Of a DNA stretch of 64,000 nt, positions 1,142 through 44,917 are shown in pieces. Position 1 is the first letter of the stretch. Every line of letters begins with the position of its first letter. Source of the stretch: a virus; IMG/VR virus record IMGVR_UViG_3300037521_000345, positions 1 to 64,000 of that record. The stretch is one strand, 5' to 3'. The position numbers and the translations under genes are program-made. A model generated the notes under the pieces. The model saw only the letters and a list, made by a program, of their open reading frames with translations. It had not been told where the DNA came from and ran no database searches.

Positions 1142-1157
1142 CTATATATATTAATAA
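1142..1157 (+). promoter_or_regulatory. recurring phage promoter-like motif A CTATATATATTAATAA
   Basis: Identical 16-mer at 1142, 29830, 31093, 41231, all intergenic. Confidence 0.7.
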
Positions 1158-3069: not shown

Positions 3070-3471
3070 ATGAGCGAAATTTGCGGATTAATTAAACACA
3101 AATTAAATGAGTATGGATATGAAATATACGAAATAACAGAAACTTCATATAATCGAGAATTTTGTATTATGGCAGAATCGGTAATGATATTTGTCAATGA
3201 ACTTGAAAAGTCTTTAACATTATCGTTTGAATGTACTTTAGAACCAGAGAAAGTAGCACAAAGAATAATGGTTATTAATGAAATTGATGAAGTAAGTTTA
3301 GTTTATATTTCAGAATCCTATATATTTGATAAAGTAACTGAAAAATATATAGTTGGTGATCATGCTAAACAAGTAGCATGTGAAATGGAACAATCCAAAC
3401 TATTAAAGGAGATTACTAGGAAACGACTTTATTGTCATATTTTGAAAACACAGAAATGTCACGAATGTTAG
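3070..3471 (+). CDS. hypothetical protein
   Basis: ORF track 3055..3471; GGAGG SD favours ATG at 3070. Confidence 0.7.
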   Translation: MSEICGLIKHKLNEYGYEIYEITETSYNREFCIMAESVMIFVNELEKSLTLSFECTLEPEKVAQRIMVINEIDEVSLVYISESYIFDKVTEKYIVGDHAKQVACEMEQSKLLKEITRKRLYCHILKTQKCHEC

Positions 3472-29829: not shown

Positions 29830-29845
29830 CTATATATATTAATAA
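29830..29845 (+). promoter_or_regulatory. recurring phage promoter-like motif A CTATATATATTAATAA
   Basis: Exact copy; flanks (TTCATTTT..AAAA upstream, CT downstream) also resemble the 41231 copy. Confidence 0.7.
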
Positions 29846-31092: not shown

Positions 31093-31108
31093 CTATATAT
31101 ATTAATAA
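31093..31108 (+). promoter_or_regulatory. recurring phage promoter-like motif A CTATATATATTAATAA
   Basis: Exact copy upstream of 31155 gene. Confidence 0.7.
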
Positions 31109-36280: not shown

Positions 36281-39200
36281 ATGATTAAATTTCAATCTTT
36301 AGTTCAATATTCAAGAGTAGTTGATGGAGTTCGTTTCTTTTCAGATAAGGATAGACCGTTCGTATTATTTTATTTCTCCGAGAATTCAACTCTATATGAA
36401 GATTATCCTAAAATGAATTTAAGAAGAATAGATGCAAGATATATAGTTGTTCCAATAACCCAGATACCTGTCTCTAGATTAACGGGCGATCAAAGAAAAG
36501 TTTATAAATCTTTTGGTTTACTTCCATTTCAATCAAATCAAGTATATCCCTTAAATGCAAATATTATATTCGATACCAGTAAATATGTTTCCTTGATAGA
36601 TAAGATGTATAAACCAACAACATATAGACAAAGAGCAGGTTTTCTTCTAAATAATTTTCTTTATAAATCATTTAATTCGTTTCCTGATAACTATGAAAAA
36701 GTTCTAATTTATACTGTTGATGTTAATAAACCAATCAATTCGTTTATAAATCGAAAGATTTTTCCTATATTAAGAACTATGAAAGGAGATGAAATTTCAT
36801 TTGATCATATGCTTATGGCATTGATTGGAGAGTCGTCAACTAGATATAGACTATTAGTTAAAGACAGAAACTATAAATTTGCAAGAGTTTCTCAATATAT
36901 AAGAAAAGTTAAAATGATTAGTTCAGATGATGAGAAAGAACAAGAAGTTAAAACAGCAACGAACTCATTTGATGAGAAAGATTCTAAAGTTAAAACAGCA
37001 ATTCAAAACTATTTAAATAAAAATGCTAAAGATCTTGAGAAAGTTTCTAATAATGAACTTGATAAAACAGAAAGAGATAGATTAACAATAGCTTCTATCT
37101 TATATAAATTAACAGGAGATTTTCAAAAGTCTCAAAGACTTGCAAAAGCTATTCCTAAAAAAAGTATTAAAACTGCAACTGAAAAGATAAGTCGTTTATA
37201 TAAAGATGACTTATTAACAGGTGAAAAAGCTGTTAGTCTTAGTGAATCATATATTGTTCAGGGAATAAATGTTTCCAGGGTAGTTCAAAATAAAACACCA
37301 GAGCATATATTTGACAAAAGAAGAATTGACTTTCAAACAAATTTAAAAAAGGATATGTCAAATGCTTTTAAAGTTTTAGAAAAAGGAAACGTTCCTATTA
37401 AATTTAATTCATTTAAAATTACTCATAAAAAAGGAAGAGCTGGAGAACTTAAAAAATCAGATGTTTCAATTATAACTGTAAGTATAACAGATGCAGCAGG
37501 AAAGAATCAAACATTTGAGTTTGAAATTCCACAGATTGATCCTGACTCTGGAACATTTAGAGTTAATGGTCAGCGCAAATGTTTAATTAATCAAATAGTG
37601 TTGACTCCAATAAGTTTTCCTAAACCTTATGATTCCAAATTTGAGAGTTCATATGCAAGATTCCATATCTATAGTAAGAAGACAAAGAGATTGTCGTATC
37701 TAGAAGCATACATGGGTTCCTTCCGCCTACCCTTGATGATACTGTTATCATATTGTTTTGGATTTGAAAAAACAGTTAAAAAATTAGGATTACAATATGA
37801 AATTGTAAAAGATAAACCTAATAAGGATGTAGTCTTTACAGAAGTTCCTTCTTCATATATGGTATTTAAAAATTTAGATACTGATTTAAAAAAGGAAATG
37901 GTAACATCATTCACGCACGCTAAAATTAATCAATACAACATTAAAAAAGATTTTTTATCAAAAGATTATTTTGTAGAGTTGATTATACAAATGACTGGAC
38001 GTGTCGATTCAACATATCTGATAAATAATAATATTGATTATATCGTTGATCCAGTTGCAAAACAAATTTTAGTTAATCAATTATTACCATATAAATTAGA
38101 AGATATTATGCATTATATGGCAACTAAATCTGTTGATGGTTATGTTCAAGAAAGAAATGATATTAAATATCAAAGAATTAGAAATTCAGAAATTTTAGTT
38201 CATTTAGCACAAAAACAATTTCTTAGTTCTTATACTGAATATAAAGAACAGTTTTTATCAGGAAATAAAGATGCTAAATTTAATTTTCCTCCAGGAGTTA
38301 TATTAAGTCAATTTACTAACTTAGAGATAGTTCAAAATATGGAGTATGCAAATCCAGTTGAAGAGATGGCAACAATTACAAAGATTTCTCCAGTTGGAAA
38401 AACAGTTGGAGGTATTCCAGATAAGGAAGGATTAAATCTTCAAGCTCGAAATGTTCATAGATCATATTTTGGAAATATTGATCCGGTGGATACAGCAGAA
38501 GGTGGTAACATTGGGGTAACCCAACAGTTGACAGTGGACGCATATTTAACATCCTCCCGTGGATTGTTTGGAATTAAAGATTTAAAAAATGATGAAGGAG
38601 CTGGAATATTATCTACAACACTTTCAATGGTTCCATTTATTGAAAACAATGAAGGTGCAAGAATGATAATGGCAGGTAATCAAGGAAAACAAATGTTACC
38701 TTTAAAAAATCCAGAACCTCCTATAGTTCAAACAGGATATGAGTCATTACTTTCAAATGTTTTGTCTAATAATTTTATCAAGAGATCACCTTGTGCTGGA
38801 AAAGTGACAAAAATTACTGGAGATTTTATTGAAATAGCTTGTAATAAAGGTTCTAAAAAGAAAGTTGTTATCACACCAGTTCAATTAAAATCAGGAGCTG
38901 GAAAAAATACATTGAGCACATTTAAACCATCTGTTGAGGTTGGACAATCAGTTAAAAATAAGCAAGTAATTGCAGAGGGAAGTTGTATTTCTGGCGGAAC
39001 TATTTCATTAGGAAGAAATCTTGCTACTTGTTATATGCCTTATCAAGGATATAATTTTGAAGATGGTCTTGTAATAAATGAACGATTAGTATCTGATGAT
39101 AAATTAACTTCTTTACATGGAATTGATGTTGAGGCAACAGTTGATCGTAAAGATAGAATTTTACATATTATTGATATTGGAGCTAAAACTAAAAAGGGTG

Positions 39201-40345
39201 ACCCTCTAATAAGAAAGACAGCAGGTGAAATTGAAGAACTATTAGGATTTCAAGAAGAAGAGGAAGAAGGAGTTGATGTATATGAGGGTCAAATAATTAC
39301 AAAAAGTCCAGGTGGTCATGTTGTTGATATTGACGTATTTTCTAATATTGATATAGATTCTTTTCCTTCCATTAAAAAGTTAGTTGAAAGAACTAATAAA
39401 AAATATAAAAAACCTACTAAAGAAAAATTTACAACTAGAGGGGTTTCAATTAAAGGGATATTAATTATATTTAGAATTGAACAAGAGTTAAAAATTGGAG
39501 TGGGAGATAAACTCTGTAACCGATATGGAAATAAAGGTATTATATCTTTAGTTCAAAAAGATGAATTAATGCCAAGAACACCTTGGGGTGAAACAGTTGA
39601 TATTATTATGAATCCTCTTGGAGTTACTGGTCGAATGAATATAGGTCAAATATATGAATTGTATTGTGGTCTTATCTCTAAAGAAGTAGCAAATAGAATG
39701 GTTAAATTGAGCAAAGCTCAAGGCATTGCATTGATGAAAGCTGTAATAACAAGACTTGATAATACAAAAAATAAAAAAATTAGTACATCATTGATTGCTA
39801 CAATGACTGCAATGAGCGATGTAAAATATAAAAAGATGTTAGAGCAAATTCAAAAAGATAAGTTTATACCAATAGTTATTCCTCCATTTCAATCTCCTAA
39901 ACATAAAAGTATTTTAGAAGTATTAAAATTATTAAAATTAAAAACAGGATATAAATTAAAACTTCCAGAGTATAATACAAAAACTCAAAATGCGGTTCCA
40001 TTTGGATATGAATATGTTTCTAAATTAGAACATATTTCAGATGCTAAATTACATGCTAGATCAACTGGTCCAACAACTGGAAAAGTTGGTCAACCAACTG
40101 CTGGTAAAAGAAAAGAGGGTGGGCAAAGAATAGGAGAAGGAGATACATGGGCATTAACAAGTTATAATTGTCCTACAATATTATCTGAACTCTTTGGACC
40201 TATGTCTGATGACTTTGTATCTAAAAATGAAATGATGTCAGAAATTATACAAAATGGAAGAACAGATTTTAAAGAAACAAAAATGTCTCCAACTAGAGAT
40301 TTATTAAAAGCATATTTTATTTCTTTAATGCTAGGAGGTCAATAA
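36281..40345 (+). CDS. rpoB: phage multisubunit RNA polymerase beta subunit with N-terminal extension
   Basis: GTFRVNG, DTAEGGNIG, GYNFEDG, GDKLCNRYGNKG, MNPLGVTGRMNIGQ, KLEH, GGQRIGE. Confidence 0.95.
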   Translation: MIKFQSLVQYSRVVDGVRFFSDKDRPFVLFYFSENSTLYEDYPKMNLRRIDARYIVVPITQIPVSRLTGDQRKVYKSFGLLPFQSNQVYPLNANIIFDTSKYVSLIDKMYKPTTYRQRAGFLLNNFLYKSFNSFPDNYEKVLIYTVDVNKPINSFINRKIFPILRTMKGDEISFDHMLMALIGESSTRYRLLVKDRNYKFARVSQYIRKVKMISSDDEKEQEVKTATNSFDEKDSKVKTAIQNYLNKNAKDLEKVSNNELDKTERDRLTIASILYKLTGDFQKSQRLAKAIPKKSIKTATEKISRLYKDDLLTGEKAVSLSESYIVQGINVSRVVQNKTPEHIFDKRRIDFQTNLKKDMSNAFKVLEKGNVPIKFNSFKITHKKGRAGELKKSDVSIITVSITDAAGKNQTFEFEIPQIDPDSGTFRVNGQRKCLINQIVLTPISFPKPYDSKFESSYARFHIYSKKTKRLSYLEAYMGSFRLPLMILLSYCFGFEKTVKKLGLQYEIVKDKPNKDVVFTEVPSSYMVFKNLDTDLKKEMVTSFTHAKINQYNIKKDFLSKDYFVELIIQMTGRVDSTYLINNNIDYIVDPVAKQILVNQLLPYKLEDIMHYMATKSVDGYVQERNDIKYQRIRNSEILVHLAQKQFLSSYTEYKEQFLSGNKDAKFNFPPGVILSQFTNLEIVQNMEYANPVEEMATITKISPVGKTVGGIPDKEGLNLQARNVHRSYFGNIDPVDTAEGGNIGVTQQLTVDAYLTSSRGLFGIKDLKNDEGAGILSTTLSMVPFIENNEGARMIMAGNQGKQMLPLKNPEPPIVQTGYESLLSNVLSNNFIKRSPCAGKVTKITGDFIEIACNKGSKKKVVITPVQLKSGAGKNTLSTFKPSVEVGQSVKNKQVIAEGSCISGGTISLGRNLATCYMPYQGYNFEDGLVINERLVSDDKLTSLHGIDVEATVDRKDRILHIIDIGAKTKKGDPLIRKTAGEIEELLGFQEEEEEGVDVYEGQIITKSPGGHVVDIDVFSNIDIDSFPSIKKLVERTNKKYKKPTKEKFTTRGVSIKGILIIFRIEQELKIGVGDKLCNRYGNKGIISLVQKDELMPRTPWGETVDIIMNPLGVTGRMNIGQIYELYCGLISKEVANRMVKLSKAQGIALMKAVITRLDNTKNKKISTSLIATMTAMSDVKYKKMLEQIQKDKFIPIVIPPFQSPKHKSILEVLKLLKLKTGYKLKLPEYNTKTQNAVPFGYEYVSKLEHISDAKLHARSTGPTTGKVGQPTAGKRKEGGQRIGEGDTWALTSYNCPTILSELFGPMSDDFVSKNEMMSEIIQNGRTDFKETKMSPTRDLLKAYFISLMLGGQ

Positions 40346-40941
40346 TGAGTGGGTTAGAAGCTTTATGCGGTGATTTAATCATTCCACCTGAAATGGATAA
40401 CTATGAAGAAGATGTTGATAAATATCATGATCTCGCCAGTTTCAGGTATGCTGCTCTTGATATAATAAATGTAGTTGGAAAAATTGACTTTAAAGAACTA
40501 TATATTGTTCAAATGGATACTATTAAAAAACAAACAATGTATGTACAGAGAGTATTTCTTATTGAAATGCTACAAAAGATAAGTGAAATTTATGATTGGG
40601 AATTTCCTGATGAATGGAGTTTAGTTGATACTTCATATCAACAAGAACAATTATATAAGTTTATAGAATTTATTGAATTTGATAATTATAGATTTTTATC
40701 CTACGTTTGGAGATTTTTATTAGATGATACTACTAAACTTATAAGATTCGATATTGATAATTTTTGTAAAAAAAATGTTATGAAGATAATTAAAGAGACA
40801 GAAGAACAGTTAGAAACTCATTTTCAAAGCAAGATGATTACTATTTTTCTTAGAACATATTACAAAGAGAAGTTCATTGAATGGTTTAGTTTAATGAGTA
40901 GGAGATATAAAGTAGAAATAATTTCTGAACTTTATGAATAA
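40345..40941 (+). CDS. hypothetical protein
   Basis: 198 aa, coupled to rpoB. Confidence 0.7.
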   Translation: MSGLEALCGDLIIPPEMDNYEEDVDKYHDLASFRYAALDIINVVGKIDFKELYIVQMDTIKKQTMYVQRVFLIEMLQKISEIYDWEFPDEWSLVDTSYQQEQLYKFIEFIEFDNYRFLSYVWRFLLDDTTKLIRFDIDNFCKKNVMKIIKETEEQLETHFQSKMITIFLRTYYKEKFIEWFSLMSRRYKVEIISELYE

Positions 40942-40953
40942 AAGGAGAAAAGA

Positions 40954-41211
40954 ATGGGAGAAGCAACAATTACAATTAAAAAGGGAGTGGTTGTCTTAAA
41001 AGCTCCAAAATCTGAATTAATCGAAGTATCTGAAACTCATGACGGTATAGCTTTTAACTTCAAACGTGGACTACAATTGTATCAAGTTGAACAATATATG
41101 CCATCACATATTAAACAACTTATTAAGAATACAACTGATTCATTTGAAGGAAATAATATCATTATAGATTTAGATGATGCAAAGAAACCAATTATGGTTG
41201 ACGCTACTTAA
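40954..41211 (+). CDS. hypothetical protein
   Basis: 85 aa, AGGAG SD. Confidence 0.7.
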   Translation: MGEATITIKKGVVVLKAPKSELIEVSETHDGIAFNFKRGLQLYQVEQYMPSHIKQLIKNTTDSFEGNNIIIDLDDAKKPIMVDAT

Positions 41212-41230
41212 TTCATTTTAAAAAATACAT

Positions 41231-41246
41231 CTATATATATTAATAA
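41231..41246 (+). promoter_or_regulatory. recurring phage promoter-like motif A CTATATATATTAATAA
   Basis: Exact copy about 30 nt upstream of the RNA array. Confidence 0.7.
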
Positions 41247-41274
41247 CTGATAAAGAGAAAATTGTTTAGTTTTT

Positions 41275-41387
41275 AAGTTCTAAGAAGACTTTATGTGATT
41301 CCAGAGCTGTGTTGGTACAGCATCATACTATAAATGTGAAGTCAGGGTTCGAGTCCCTCATATTACATTTCTTACTTCTTAGAATTT
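41275..41387 (+). ncRNA. array unit 1: Y-RNA-like scaffold carrying tRNA-like D/anticodon(ATA)/T arms
   Basis: TTCTAAGAAG/CTTCTTAGAA outer stem; ATGTGAT/ATTACAT inner stem; GCTG-TGTTGGTA-CAGC, TCATA-CTATAAA-TGTGA, AGGG-TTCGAGT-CCCT. Confidence 0.75.
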
Positions 41388-41397
41388 TTATTTTTTA

Positions 41398-41503
41398 TCT
41401 GGAAAGACTTTATGTGATTTCCGAGCTGTGTTGGTACAGCATCTTACTATTAATAAGAAGCAAGGGTTCAACTCCCTGTAACTTACATCTGCTACTTTCC
41501 AGA
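41398..41503 (+). ncRNA. array unit 2: same scaffold with tRNA-like D/anticodon(ATT)/T arms
   Basis: TCTGGAAAG/CTTTCCAGA; ATGTGA/TTACAT; GCTG-TGTTGGTA-CAGC, TCTTA-CTATTAA-TAAGA, AGGG-TTCAACT-CCCT. Confidence 0.75.
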
Positions 41504-41514
41504 CCTATCAAAAT

Positions 41515-41580
41515 TTTCTAAGAAGACTTTGTGTAATTCCAGATCGATGCATCCAAATTACACCTATTACTTCTTAGAAA
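41515..41580 (+). ncRNA. array unit 3: short scaffold RNA
   Basis: TTTCTAAGAAG/CTTCTTAGAAA; GTGTAATT/AATTACAC; CCAGA motif. Confidence 0.7.
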
Positions 41581-41590
41581 CACAACTTTC

Positions 41591-41690
41591 AGATGAGAAG
41601 ACTATATGTGGTTTCAGAATACAGAAGCAAGTGTTTAATACACACTTAGTCCTTGTAATACCTTTGTCCTACATAAACTACTTCTCATCT
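41591..41690 (+). ncRNA. array unit 4: scaffold RNA with internal hairpin
   Basis: AGATGAGAAG/CTTCTCATCT; TATGTGG/CTACATA; TCAGA; AAGTGT-TTAATAC-ACACTT hairpin. Confidence 0.7.
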
Positions 41691-41697
41691 CATTTTT

Positions 41698-41762
41698 CCT
41701 GAAAGACTTTTTGTAATTTCAGATTTATTGGAAAATCATCAATTACAATTACTACTTTCAGG
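41698..41762 (+). ncRNA. array unit 5: short scaffold RNA
   Basis: CCTGAAAG/CTTTCAGG; TTGTAATT/AATTACAA; TCAGA. Confidence 0.7.
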
Positions 41763-41770
41763 TTTTACTT

Positions 41771-41837
41771 TGTGGGGTCACTCAGTATAGAAAAAAACCT
41801 ATTCGGGGTTCTAAACCTATACTAATAGTACCCCACA
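41771..41837 (+). ncRNA. array unit 6: sequence-divergent hairpin with same geometry
   Basis: TGTGGGGT/ACCCCACA, 5x6 internal loop, AGTATAG/CTATACT, apical AACC/GGTT hairpin. Confidence 0.55.
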
Positions 41838-41845
41838 TCTTTTCT

Positions 41846-41904
41846 AAATGGACTTAATGTGATTTCAGACCTGCATAGTGTTAAGATTACATTTACTTCC
41901 ATTT
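41846..41904 (+). ncRNA. array unit 7: short scaffold RNA
   Basis: AAATGG/CCATTT; ACTT; AATGTGATT/GATTACATT; TCAGA. Confidence 0.65.
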
Positions 41905-42001
41905 TTTTGAAAGGAAATTGATGAAAGATTCTTTTATTCTAAAACATTGGTTATAATTGCTTTACGTCGTCAGAAACATTTAAAGGGAAAGGAGATCTAA
42001 A

Positions 42002-43513
42002 GTGCCAGGAGAGTTAGGATTAATTGATTCAGGTATATTGCAGTTTGCTCCAAAGGGAGCTTATTATGAAGGAAAAGATGAGCAATATAATGCCATCAAT
42101 AGCATGTGGGAAAGTCTATTTAAATATGATAGAACTTTATTTTCTTTGCTAATGTTGTTAAATGGAACAGGTTTTGCAAAGGGATCAATGTCTCACATCT
42201 TATTATCGAATCCATTAGAGGAATCCAAACTTCCAGTATTAGATAACCTACCTTCCCATTTTGAGAAGGATATTATAAACTATGCTCTTTATAAGGAGAG
42301 AACTCCAAGAGCATTGAAAAATTTATTAATGTTAACAGGAGCAGAAGGGCACAGTAAAGTTAATAATTCTAGAACAAGAAAAATGATTTTAGAATTTATA
42401 TTCAATCGAGATAATAATAATCTTGATAATCTTGCTGTGAATTATAAAGGCAAACTTCAAACGCTGATTACACATGCTCTTGGAAAACAAGATCTAGCAA
42501 AAATTCTTGGTGGTGACAAAAAATCATTTGAAAAATTCATTGGAAAATATAATAGACATTCTTTTCCTGTAGTTCTTCATATATTCAATATGGATATTCC
42601 AACTGTGGGAGCTTACTTTCCAATGATTGAAAAATATTATAAACTTCGAAACGCAGCACAAGAGAAAAATATTACAGAATTTAAAAAATTAATGAAGGGC
42701 ATGCCAGAAAGAACAGTCATGGGTATGAGGAATTTATATAAAGTTAACATTCCTATATCTGAATTAAAAGATGAAACTACCAAATCACAAAAGGATAGAA
42801 TTCAAGGACAGGCAGCAGCTAAAAGAGCTGGAACAAAGATAGATATTGATTATAAAAAACAAGATATCTATGACTTATTTAAATTTCTATATTTTAAAAT
42901 CAAAAACAATGATGGTGAGGATTTTAATAAAATATTATATGCCATTGATCACGTTGCAGGCAAACTTCCTAAAATAGATATTGGAGAATGTGTAGTAGTT
43001 ATGGATGCTTCACATTCAATGATGGGAAGTGATGAAAGACCAATGCATCCATTTCTAACTGGACTATCTATTACTGCAACTCTCAAAAATATAAGAGAGT
43101 ATATATATGTTGGAGGAGAAACAGCTAAAATGGAAGGTAATGATTTTCCAGAAATTGTAGTTCCTTGCAATAGTACAGATTTATGGAGAGGATTGATCAA
43201 AGCTGTTAAAACAGGTGTTGAAAATATAGTTATCATTTCAGATGGTTATGAAAACACCATCAAAGGAATGTTCAAACACGTATATGATCACTTAAAAAAG
43301 AATGGATATAAGTTCAAAGTAACTCATATCAATCCTGTATTTTCAGCTTCATCTGTTAATGGTTCAACAAGAAAATTAGCAGATGATATTAAATCTATGC
43401 CAGTAGGAAACTATAAGTATTTAGAAACAGAAGTTATTTTTTCTAGACTTGTAGAGGATAAGGAAATGGTTAAAAAAATATTAATCTCAAAATATAGAAA
43501 TTTACTTCAATAA
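42002..43513 (+). CDS. vWA-domain protein with helical N-terminus, Ro60/TROVE-like
   Basis: GTG start with AAGGAG SD; C-terminal MIDAS VVMDASHSM...STDL...IISDGYEN; 503 aa and architecture like Ro60 (TROVE identity inferred). Confidence 0.65.
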   Translation: MPGELGLIDSGILQFAPKGAYYEGKDEQYNAINSMWESLFKYDRTLFSLLMLLNGTGFAKGSMSHILLSNPLEESKLPVLDNLPSHFEKDIINYALYKERTPRALKNLLMLTGAEGHSKVNNSRTRKMILEFIFNRDNNNLDNLAVNYKGKLQTLITHALGKQDLAKILGGDKKSFEKFIGKYNRHSFPVVLHIFNMDIPTVGAYFPMIEKYYKLRNAAQEKNITEFKKLMKGMPERTVMGMRNLYKVNIPISELKDETTKSQKDRIQGQAAAKRAGTKIDIDYKKQDIYDLFKFLYFKIKNNDGEDFNKILYAIDHVAGKLPKIDIGECVVVMDASHSMMGSDERPMHPFLTGLSITATLKNIREYIYVGGETAKMEGNDFPEIVVPCNSTDLWRGLIKAVKTGVENIVIISDGYENTIKGMFKHVYDHLKKNGYKFKVTHINPVFSASSVNGSTRKLADDIKSMPVGNYKYLETEVIFSRLVEDKEMVKKILISKYRNLLQ

Positions 43514-43530: not shown

Positions 43531-44502
43531 ATGTCAATATTGAAAACATTAGGATTTACAAATCTTAATGCTGGAACCGTTCAAGTTGTGGATGAAATGA
43601 CAGTAGTGCCCTTAATTAGTGAAGATTTAGGACAAGTTGCTGAACCATTTTCATTGAAATTCAGACGAACAAACACTTATGGTTCCATGATTTATGAGAA
43701 TTTAGATAAGGAATCTCCTGCGATCATTCCCAATAATATTATGGTGAGAGGATTGAGTGCACAGGATCACGCAATGGCAGGATCAGGAGTGGTTAAAGCT
43801 GAAAAATCAAAAACATTCAATAATGCTTGCTGTATTGAATCAAGTCAAGGTGGATATCTAGGTGAAGAAAATAATGAATATGATATCTTGCCTGTTCAGC
43901 TTCGTAAGAAACTTATTCCATTAGATATAAGAAATAAAAAAAGTTATGATAAATTATGGCCAGAAATTACAGCATGGTTGAAAGGTACTATTGATGTATC
44001 TCCTCGTTTCTCAAGTGCCCATCTAAGATATTTCTATGATGATCCTGAAATAAAGAAATCTCTTGAAACATTCTCCGCTGAATTTGAACCTGTATTAAAT
44101 CAAATCGGTGCTATTATATTATTTACAGATAACATTGTTGGTATAGAAGTTATGCCAACTCTTTCACATTGGTATTATTACTGGAAATTATTAATTCGTG
44201 GATGTTATGGAGCTGAATTATTAAGACGTAAAAAATTAAATATAATTAAACCAGCTAAATTGAAACTTCCAAAACTTCCAAAAGATATTGATCAGATATC
44301 TTTAGTTGGCGATACTTATACAGATGGTATTCGTCAAAACATTATTAAAAAATTAGACACTATTAATTTGAAAACAACTTCAACTATTATAGAAAAAGTT
44401 GAAGATATTAATATTATATTATTAAACAGTGAATCAGGTGGTAGCGGTGGAGATTTGATTACTCAAAAAGATAAACCAATATATCTTTCTATAGTGATGT
44501 AA
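43531..44502 (+). CDS. ARPP/DUF6569-like protein
   Basis: N-terminal Q...MTVVPL, AQDH, CCIESSQGG, NQIGAII...VGIEV pattern recalled for this family. Confidence 0.5.
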   Translation: MSILKTLGFTNLNAGTVQVVDEMTVVPLISEDLGQVAEPFSLKFRRTNTYGSMIYENLDKESPAIIPNNIMVRGLSAQDHAMAGSGVVKAEKSKTFNNACCIESSQGGYLGEENNEYDILPVQLRKKLIPLDIRNKKSYDKLWPEITAWLKGTIDVSPRFSSAHLRYFYDDPEIKKSLETFSAEFEPVLNQIGAIILFTDNIVGIEVMPTLSHWYYYWKLLIRGCYGAELLRRKKLNIIKPAKLKLPKLPKDIDQISLVGDTYTDGIRQNIIKKLDTINLKTTSTIIEKVEDINIILLNSESGGSGGDLITQKDKPIYLSIVM

Positions 44503-44669
44503 TGGATAATCAAGAACTTGAGAGACTAATCAAAAAAATAAGGAGAAGATTAGTGGCATTTATACAAAGTCCATCTACTGCTCCTAAAATCATCGTCGCT
44601 ATCGCTCAAGCGTGTGGAATAAAAATCCCACTCGAAGTTGAGAAGAAATACGATTCTAAAGAATCCTAA
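44502..44669 (+). CDS. small hypothetical protein (55 aa), not in ORF track
   Basis: TAATG coupling to 43531 gene; MDNQELERLIKKIRRRLVAFIQSPSTAPKIIVAIAQACGIKIPLEVEKKYDSKES. Confidence 0.6.
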   Translation: MDNQELERLIKKIRRRLVAFIQSPSTAPKIIVAIAQACGIKIPLEVEKKYDSKES

Positions 44670-44864
44670 AAGAACCACCCTGATTGTTTCGATGATCTGT
44701 GGTATTCGCTTTTAGTCTTTATGGTTCATATGAACCCTAAAAGACGCACCCCTGTCATTTCGGTGACCTGTGGTATTTGCTTTTAGTTATTAATTTTAGT
44801 TATTAATTTAACTATTATTAAGACTATTAGCAAATACCACAGGTCATTGGAATGGCAGGGGTGC
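44665..44864. repeat. two 52-bp direct repeats plus an inverted third copy and a 14-bp palindrome
   Basis: Copy A 44665-44716, copy B 44736-44787, inverted copy 44829-44864; GGTTCATATGAACC at 44723-44736. Confidence 0.85.
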
Positions 44865-44917
44865 TATTTAATCTTCTGTTTTGTTGTTCTAAATTTTTTT
44901 ACATTGGGAGCTAATTA

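Follow-up and report, generated by a model that had tools for sequence, protein, structure and literature searches.

What is a run of similar, strongly paired sequence units doing directly upstream of a gene pair in the genome of a large virus? The run lies at positions 41278-41904 (+ strand) of a 64-kb stretch of DNA and is followed on the same strand by genes for a vWA-domain protein and an ARPP-1 domain protein. The stretch, hereafter the window, is the first 64 kb (positions 1 to 64,000) of the virus record IMGVR_UViG_3300037521_000345 from IMG/VR, which is 99 kb long and has a completeness estimate of 32%; a record of this length that is only 32% complete points to a jumbo phage as its source. 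A preliminary description, made from the letters of the window, had read the run as a tandem array of structured RNAs. Our analysis suggests that the array is one transcription unit of seven small non-coding RNAs, which would be part of a phage version of the Ro60/Y-RNA ribonucleoprotein (RNP).

The array holds six copies of one scaffold and a divergent hairpin

We read and folded the array unit by unit. It consists of six units of one scaffold and one odd hairpin, at the positions that the preliminary description had given, and the outer and inner stems quoted there pair as written. The 5' half of the scaffold runs from an outer stem ending in G through ACU and an inner stem to UUC(A/U)GA, after which the insert, or cargo, begins. 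In the 3' half, the second strand of the inner stem is followed by a short loop that ends in UA and by the second strand of the outer stem, so that the outer stem of each unit is its own 5' end paired with its own 3' end. Neighbouring units are separated by A/U-rich linkers of 7-13 nt.

All seven units lie on the + strand. Unit 1 (u1, 41278-41384) carries a tRNA-like core without an acceptor stem at 41305-41358, and unit 2 (u2, 41398-41503), which has a UUUCCGA variant of the scaffold, carries a tRNA-like core at 41416-41485. Short hairpins are the cargo of unit 3 (u3, 41515-41580), unit 5 (u5, 41698-41762) and unit 7 (u7, 41846-41904, or to 41910 with its U tract), and unit 4 (u4, 41591-41690) has a hairpin cargo of ~52 nt with a 7-nt loop. 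Unit 6 (u6, 41771-41838) is the divergent hairpin; its geometry is similar, and of the motif only the ACU of the 5' internal loop is retained.

The 19-nt 5' motif GACTWWNTGTRRTTYCMGA was found in six copies with zero mismatches, and in the entire 99-kb record these copies are confined to the array and to the + strand. Allowing up to 2 mismatches gave 14 matches against 3.6 expected, a count reached by 0/100 shuffles. When folded against 200 shuffles, six of the seven units were beaten by none or one (z -2.8 to -5.1, with -5.1 for u3, -3.5 for u4, -4.9 for u5, -4.8 for u6 and -3.6 for u7). The fold of u2 is weaker (z -2.3, with 2/200 shuffles as good).

Other classes of repetitive or structured element were considered and dropped. 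A CRISPR array was rejected, as it had been in the preliminary description, because the conserved halves are complementary to each other and bracket each insert, which is the wrong geometry; Pfam equally found no cas domain in the open reading frames (ORFs) flanking the array. Retron and ribozyme readings were abandoned in the absence of an Rfam match and of a Pfam reverse-transcriptase domain in the same array-flanking ORFs.

Comparative evidence establishes a structured RNA family

The 503-aa protein encoded directly downstream of the array (the vWA-domain protein) was used to find related loci. A single-sequence scan of IMG/VR with this protein gave no match; an alignment-based scan of IMG/VR yielded 11 related loci with 50-66% protein identity. 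In each of these loci the motif occurs 3-5 times, on the gene strand and just 5' of the gene, and the raw stems, outer as well as inner, differ in sequence yet pair.

From 12 short units (alignment A2) we then built a covariance model, R1. This model matched 57 units in the window and the 11 related loci (12 phages), all of them on the gene strand in the gap 5' of the homologous gene, with 3 to 9 matched units per phage. Altogether 57/58 array matches fall on the gene strand, the other being a weak minus-strand match (17.8 bits, E 0.49). In the window the best match was u7 (63.3 bits), followed by u5 (61.1 bits), u3 (54.6 bits), u1 (45.9 bits), u4 (36.2 bits) and u2 (29.9 bits). No R1 match was obtained for u6, for which we also found no sequence counterpart among the relatives.

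Covariation across homologs, for which the preliminary description had proposed a covariance model, was evident throughout the R1 alignment. All 13 pairs (13/13) show compensatory changes on both sides, and 96.3% of the cells are paired compared with 37-52% when partners are slid; pairing and double changes as observed were found in 0/500 shuffles. The R1 alignment is fitted to the model and so is biased toward structure, and it is the slid-partner control and the raw stems that support a real signal behind these figures. Three further candidate pairs were added, of which one covaries, one is a conserved U-U mismatch and one is a U-A pair. They extend the inner stem and indicate that the true internal loop is small, with a 5' AC opposite about 3 nt ending in UA. 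Conservation of 91-100% was found for the G, A, C and U after the outer stem and for the UUC-GA after the inner stem. Comparative evidence thus establishes both the RNA family and its structure, and no description of this scaffold was found in the literature.

The orientation of the family required separate attention. The preliminary description had argued that G-U pairs work only on the + strand. This is clear for u7 alone (z -3.6 on the + strand versus -0.7 on the - strand); the argument fails for several units of the window, which fold equally well on the minus strand. It is rather the tRNA-like cores, the 28 G-U cells that occur across relatives and are consistent with the + strand, and the placement of R1 matches on the gene strand that fix the orientation as +.

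Scaffolds carry tRNA-like cores, complete tRNAs or small hairpins

The cargo of u1 matches the Rfam tRNA model with 29.0 bits, at model positions 9-63 only, and has the anticodon-loop triplet AUA. Similarly, the cargo of u2 matches with 29.9 bits, with two mismatched acceptor pairs and the triplet AUU. In both units a D arm, an anticodon arm and a T arm are grafted in their natural order straight onto the inner stem of the scaffold. The notion of a structured RNA family with exchangeable inserts, put forward in the preliminary description, therefore held overall and needed correction for u1 and u2, whose cargo of tRNA-like arms is not arbitrary. Neither u1 nor u2 has the full cloverleaf of RF00005 with a 7-bp acceptor stem and a free 3' end, and ARAGORN called zero tRNAs in the window.

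In the relatives many units hold complete tRNAs (45-67 bits), often with an encoded CCA. The 5' end of these tRNAs lies at or beside the conserved junction of UC and (W)GA, and the CCA is followed by a short A-rich linker and then by the inner-stem return. With these flanks, the acceptor end is expected to be buried in the internal loop of a longer helix. Other units of the relatives resemble u1 and u2 in having acceptor-less cores, and about half of all the units hold nothing but small hairpins, often with UUCG-type loop caps. The anticodons are varied; of the tRNA-like cargos in close relatives, numbering about 22, about 8 have A34.

We also observed that the scaffolded tRNAs of the relatives, whatever their anticodon identity, all start with (C/U)(A/U)GA, and that several have a mismatched 1-72 pair. 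This shared start suggests that the first acceptor-stem pairs are set by the scaffold and not by tRNA identity.

A guide-RNA reading was set aside on the nature of the cargos, which are tRNAs, tRNA cores and small hairpins rather than target-like spacers, without a search against host or phage sequences.

The downstream gene encodes a protein with a predicted Ro60 fold

The gene for the 503-aa protein (42002-43513, + strand) starts about 100 nt after the end of the array. [quoted passage not shown] In an alignment of 32 homologs the MIDAS motif DxSxS and a second vWA motif, SDGYEN, are invariant and lie in the C-terminal third. An AlphaFold (AF2) model with a predicted local distance difference test (pLDDT) score of 81.5 shows helical repeats over ~320 residues and then an alpha/beta domain.

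The best 11 Foldseek matches to this model were all full-length Ro60/TROVE structures. VIA-align scored the model at Z 13.6 and 12.7 against the Thermus phage phiLo Ro60 and at Z 10.7-11.5 against the Xenopus, human and Deinococcus Ro60 proteins, with 375-393 residues aligned at 9-15% identity, and structures matching the vWA domain only reached Z 10-11 over ~130 residues. Z values of this size lie where helical repeats may match by arrangement alone; the assignment carries weight because only Ro60 proteins match both domains in order. Independent agreement comes from the ESM Atlas, where the nearest named clusters are TROVE/vWA_Ro60 (0.96, 21/30 matches). By its modelled structure, with a ring of helical repeats and a MIDAS-containing vWA domain, the 503-aa protein is predicted to fold as Ro60. 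The suggestion in the preliminary description to check for Y RNA and YrlA proved key, given that its 'vWA' protein turned out to have this predicted fold.

The family is large. Metagenomes gave 227 scored homologs with 50-97% identity, many of them from contigs 100-250 kb long, and when 1.8 billion representatives were searched with a profile, at least 443 relatives were returned, counted as cluster representatives.

The partner gene (43531-44502, + strand) encodes a 323-aa ARPP-1 domain protein (Pfam PF20208, E 2.3e-16). It was found directly 3' of the Ro60-like gene in all loci examined, including those of homologs with 28% and 22% identity. A natural fusion is also known to us from the search, an 884-aa protein (P0249) that joins a Ro60-like protein (residues 36-482) to an ARPP-1 domain (residues 565-823), which argues that the neighbouring Ro60-like and ARPP-1 genes work together.

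The RNA family accompanies the Ro60-like/ARPP gene pair across genomes

The preliminary description had raised the question of whether such units sit beside the same vWA and ARPP genes elsewhere. They do so in the 11 related loci, and the association extends to homologs with 22-28% identity. To this we can add a scan of IMG/VR for the exact pattern followed by R1, in which real units were found only on contigs with a Ro60-like gene, one 4.7-kb fragment excepted.

A 248-kb relative (G001; loci L014/L015) is instructive, as it has 27 canonical tRNA genes and a tmRNA gene at 53-83 kb. The scaffold was found in none of these 27 tRNA genes, even at E<=10. Four R1 matches adjoin the Ro60-like gene at 164 kb, ~80 kb from the tRNA cluster. 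A fifth unit there, a tRNA-Ile(AAU), gave no R1 match and its scaffold was seen by eye; it duplicates the canonical GAU species. The same genome has a tRNA with the amber-reading anticodon CUA, far from the Ro60-like locus, which may hint at stop-codon suppression or recoding.

The scaffold can be followed to more distant homologs. In LR756500.1 (L002), where the homolog is 28% identical, a tRNA-Leu with CCA lies inside a GGAGA-ACU...ACAGA / ...UUA-UCUCC scaffold, whose outer and inner stems measure 11 bp and 7 bp and are separated by ACU, with ACAGA after the inner one. The motif has two more copies upstream, and three other tRNAs in the locus have no scaffold. R1 misses these diverged units even with its filters off, and they were located by eye and by regular expression. 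Two other elements of this locus, at 2810-2950 and 3205-3345, are tRNA-like, with a 7-bp acceptor stem and 3' CCA that close a long insertion; the insertions follow the 5' strand of the acceptor stem and contain an ACU...ACAG motif, and the topology is unlike that of the window units. In the 650 nt before the gene, a contig of a Microscillaceae metagenome-assembled genome (L065; homolog of 22% identity) has one unit, in which G-ACUU is combined with an inner stem of 9 bp and with a 3' loop that ends in CUA, and three more AAG-ACUU starts.

As a sample of the distant subfamily we analysed 80 metagenome loci. A loose form of the motif was found upstream on the gene strand 62 times, versus 25 on the other strand. 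tRNAs were classed as scaffold-like when strong leader-trailer pairing was combined with RAC(U/G), a crude definition that admits some false positives in G+C-rich tRNA clusters; by this definition 34/65 scaffold-like tRNAs lie within 800 nt 5' of the gene, as do 29/151 other tRNAs. In the MAFFT alignment (A5) of the distant tRNA-bearing units the 5' scaffold and the tRNA were aligned and the 3' trailers were not, and pair counts were replaced by a comparison of each unit's leader with its own and with other units' trailers. Among 35 distant units there are 31 distinct inner 7-mers, and 16/35 (46%) are fully complementary to their own trailer compared with 9% for the trailers of other units, in a test that has a high background. 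The tie of the RNA family to the Ro60-like/ARPP gene pair is well supported by these data.

Transcription signals and locus setting

The array is headed by a promoter-like 15-mer, CTATATATATTAATA (41231-41245, + strand). The preliminary description had noted a 'promoter motif A' here, and it is a real repeated element, with four exact + strand copies in the window (1142-1156, 29830-29844, 31093-31107 and 41231-41245). The 15-mer, or a copy with up to 2 mismatches, is kept 43-204 nt 5' of the first unit in 11/11 relatives, whose proteins are only 50-66% identical to that of the window. It is probably a promoter of this phage group, judging from the sequence. At the other end, the outer stem of u7 runs into the U tract that follows it, and four relatives (L003, L005, L011 and L013) have the same AUGG/CCAU stem in their last units; u7 may thus end the transcript. 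A scan for sigma-70 promoters and terminators found nothing above shuffles in the array.

The DNA has a G+C content of 30%. A large RNA polymerase beta-like gene (36281-40345) lies upstream of the array. Pfam detected no domain in the three ORFs directly 3' of the ARPP gene or in the two directly 5' of the array, and PHROGs gave no annotation for the proteins neighbouring the array. A similarity search of the array DNA against GenBank phages gave no match, and tblastn of the protein against GenBank phages gave one distant record and nothing else. Two ORFs of 70 aa and 57 aa (41309-41521 and 41529-41702, + strand) lie wholly inside the RNA array and in all likelihood do not represent genes. Positions 44665-44870, immediately past the ARPP gene and a 55-aa ORF, contain two direct copies of a ~52-nt sequence and an inverted partial copy. 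These are closed by CUAAAAG/CUUUUAG stems, have no ACU motif and are unlike the array scaffold in design; they are possibly another small-RNA element of the same locus.

Proposed function and alternative explanations

On the basis of association and precedent, we propose, with a probability of roughly 0.6, that the array encodes Y-RNA-like partners of the Ro60-like protein and that the scaffold is its putative binding site. Across paralogs and phages the stems covary while G-ACU and UUC-GA are near-invariant, which is the pattern expected of a sequence-specific protein-binding site. The array would be transcribed from the conserved upstream 15-mer as far as the U tract after u7, and the precursor would be cut within the A/U-rich linkers. 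Each stem-closed RNA would then bind the Ro60-like protein via its scaffold, and the insert, whether a tRNA-like core with an exposed anticodon loop, a whole tRNA as in the relatives or a small hairpin, would project outward as the working module. Its role would be analogous to that of the effector-tethering or tRNA-like modules of known Y RNAs, and the ARPP-1 protein would act in the same complex or pathway.

Several observations weigh against this proposal. The Ro60-site motifs of known Y RNAs (GGUCCGA, GNCGAA, CGAA) are absent from 41212-42001, with UCCGA present in u2 only, and Rfam gave only tRNA matches and no Y RNA model, both at E<=10 in 40500-42500 and at the gathering score in the whole window. 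For the protein, the Foldseek TM-scores to Ro60 are just 0.31-0.46, the Pfam TROVE model (PF05731) matched neither the 503-aa protein nor its 32 homologs nor 10 distant relatives, and a profile search of PDB sequences with the 503-aa protein was negative. The unit on the 4.7-kb viral fragment (L024; 1181-1256 on the reverse strand of the locus, 51.3 bits) is followed downstream by 3.5 kb that contain neither a Ro60-like nor an ARPP gene. As every locus belongs to a huge-phage lineage, inherited synteny could account for part of the adjacency. To these must be added the complete tRNAs that are often the cargo in the relatives (45-67 bits, frequently with an encoded CCA), as they bring forward the main rival. 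According to this, the scaffold is a maturation signal, a leader-trailer duplex for a host or phage endoribonuclease that would either allow an RNase III-type cut in a bulged stem of ~20 bp or guide RNase P and 3' processing; it would free a special set of phage tRNAs and small RNAs, and the Ro60-like gene would be a mere neighbour. The position of the tRNA 5' end at or beside the junction of UC and (W)GA and the A-rich linker after CCA would suit such a signal, and the combined stems of ~17-23 bp with an internal loop are compatible with the geometry of a T7-type RNase III site. It would be hard to reconcile with u1 and u2, which have no acceptor end to release, with the fact that most units are small hairpins only, and with the 27 canonical tRNAs of the same phage type that do without the scaffold. 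RNase III, moreover, needs neither a near-invariant sequence nor persistence beside a Ro60-like gene from 66% to 22% identity. We consider a maturation signal unlikely as the full explanation, and it is compatible with the scaffold serving also as a handle for the Ro60-like protein.

The A34 anticodon loops of u1 (AUA) and u2 (AUU), and those of the close relatives (about 8 among about 22 tRNA-like cargos), raise another alternative, namely that the units are free-standing tRNA decoys or spares with unusual anticodons, stabilised by the closing stem, which absorb or bypass host tRNA-targeting defences or serve U-ending codons of the phage and have no need of the Ro60-like protein. A34 is also present in 10/65 scaffold-like tRNAs of the distant loci versus 5/151 other tRNAs, and the genome's G+C content of 30% is in its favour. 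As about half of the units have no tRNA-like part, the anticodons are otherwise diverse, and the invariant scaffold sequence and the constant Ro60-like/ARPP neighbours would be left unexplained, we regard this as quite improbable. A repeat acting at the level of DNA (a recombination site, the ends of a mobile element, or a replication or packaging signal) with no RNA role is very strongly disfavoured. The several window units that fold about equally on the minus strand would be in keeping with it; what speaks against it are the compensatory changes that preserve pairing through sequence drift, the G-U pairs that suit one strand only, the tRNA-like cores and complete tRNAs that share the orientation of the scaffold, and the constant strand and placement with respect to the gene and the promoter-like motif.

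Returning to the proposal of Y-RNA-like partners, a bolder and rather unlikely extension is that the Ro60-like/ARPP pair and the scaffold RNAs form a tRNA-centred RNP system of huge phages. 'Caged' tRNAs or tRNA cores, their acceptor end and CCA buried in an internal loop and their anticodon loop (often an A34 variant) exposed, would sit on a Ro60-like ring, and the RNP would offer these loops as a bait or sensor, or hold them as a reserve shielded from host attack on tRNAs. The RNA or its ends would be the substrate of ARPP-1, which is a predicted enzyme with links to ADP-ribose chemistry in other systems.

Conservation of Ro60 and Y RNAs extends from bacteria to humans, and the function of the RNA modules is poorly understood. 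The locus described here offers a natural series in which a constant handle is combined with many modules, including genuine tRNAs in normal topology, and this series recurs across a large Ro60-like family (at least 443 cluster representatives) that sequence models have missed. If the handle does bind the protein, the scaffold would be a new Ro60 recognition code, the Ro60 world would gain a large hidden branch in huge phages, and Ro60 would acquire a connection with the ARPP-1 enzymes, an uncharacterised family, and possibly with conflicts of phage and host over tRNA. As a search tool, the scaffold can in any case serve to annotate RNAs that no Rfam model covers.

Comparison with known systems

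Clusters of tRNA genes in T4-type phages are polycistronic and, as in the array, mix tRNAs with small structured stable RNAs. They are not known to have a conserved leader-trailer scaffold, and they differ from the situation here in that an ordinary tRNA cluster, without scaffold, is found elsewhere in the phage.

The closer comparison is with Y RNAs (YrlA/YrlB, Yrn1/Yrn2 and phiLo Yrl1/Yrl2). Bacterial and some phage Ro60 genes have Y RNAs upstream on the same strand (Chen et al. 2014, PMC4201824), and in Thermus phage phiLo two Y-like RNAs that lie upstream and were found through a CGAA motif are bound by the phage's Ro60 (PMC12135203). The array shares with these the location of small RNAs just 5' of a Ro60-type gene on the same strand, and the pairing of 5' and 3' ends into a long stem with a bulge or internal loop. 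It also has several RNAs per locus. Y RNAs can come from a polycistronic precursor that sometimes includes a real tRNA (PMC4201824), and cutting from one precursor is likewise suggested for the array. Each species has at least one Y RNA with a tRNA-like domain and another that is a plain hairpin (PMC4201824), a division into two classes that is seen here too.

Relative to known Ro60/Y-RNA systems, the locus is new in its invariant motif, its larger arrays, its unpermuted or whole tRNAs, its sequence-divergent protein and its ARPP-1 partner. The Ro60-site motif on the 5' strand of Y RNAs is GGUCCGA in animals and GNCGAAN0-1G in bacteria (PMC4201824); here a nearly invariant G-ACU ... UUC(A/U)GA scaffold takes its place. 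Known Y loci have 2-4 RNAs, compared with at least 3 model-matched units per phage, and up to 9, in the present family. In YrlA the tRNA-like domain is permuted (V, T, capped acceptor stem, D), with the Y stem replacing the anticodon stem, and the YrlA of M. smegmatis undergoes cleavage by RNase P and addition of CCA (PMC4201824). The tRNA-like cores of the array, in contrast, have the order D, anticodon, T, their acceptor end continues into the scaffold, and the anticodon loop is exposed; furthermore, complete tRNAs with CCA are embedded in units of the relatives. The partner gene is ARPP-1 rather than RtcB/RtcA.

Some jumbo phages have been reported to have TROVE proteins (Iyer et al. 2021, PMC7824862). 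The 503-aa protein resembles the Ro60/TROVE proteins of Xenopus, human, Deinococcus (Rsr) and phiLo in its length of about 500 aa, its helical repeats and MIDAS vWA domain, and its full-length structural match, and it differs from them in belonging to its own family, which goes unrecognised as TROVE by sequence and is tied to ARPP-1. ARPP-1 itself is a probable enzyme of ADP-ribose-centred conflict systems and frequently has a vWA neighbour (Iyer et al. 2022, PMC9503650). The pairing of ARPP-1 with a vWA-domain protein is thus shared with the vWA and ARPP pairs of ARG-centred ADP-ribose conflict systems. The vWA protein of those pairs has been read as a peptide-binding chaperone, with no RNA partner described (PMC9503650), whereas in the present locus the vWA protein has a predicted Ro60-like N-terminal domain and the gene pair is preceded by structured RNAs.

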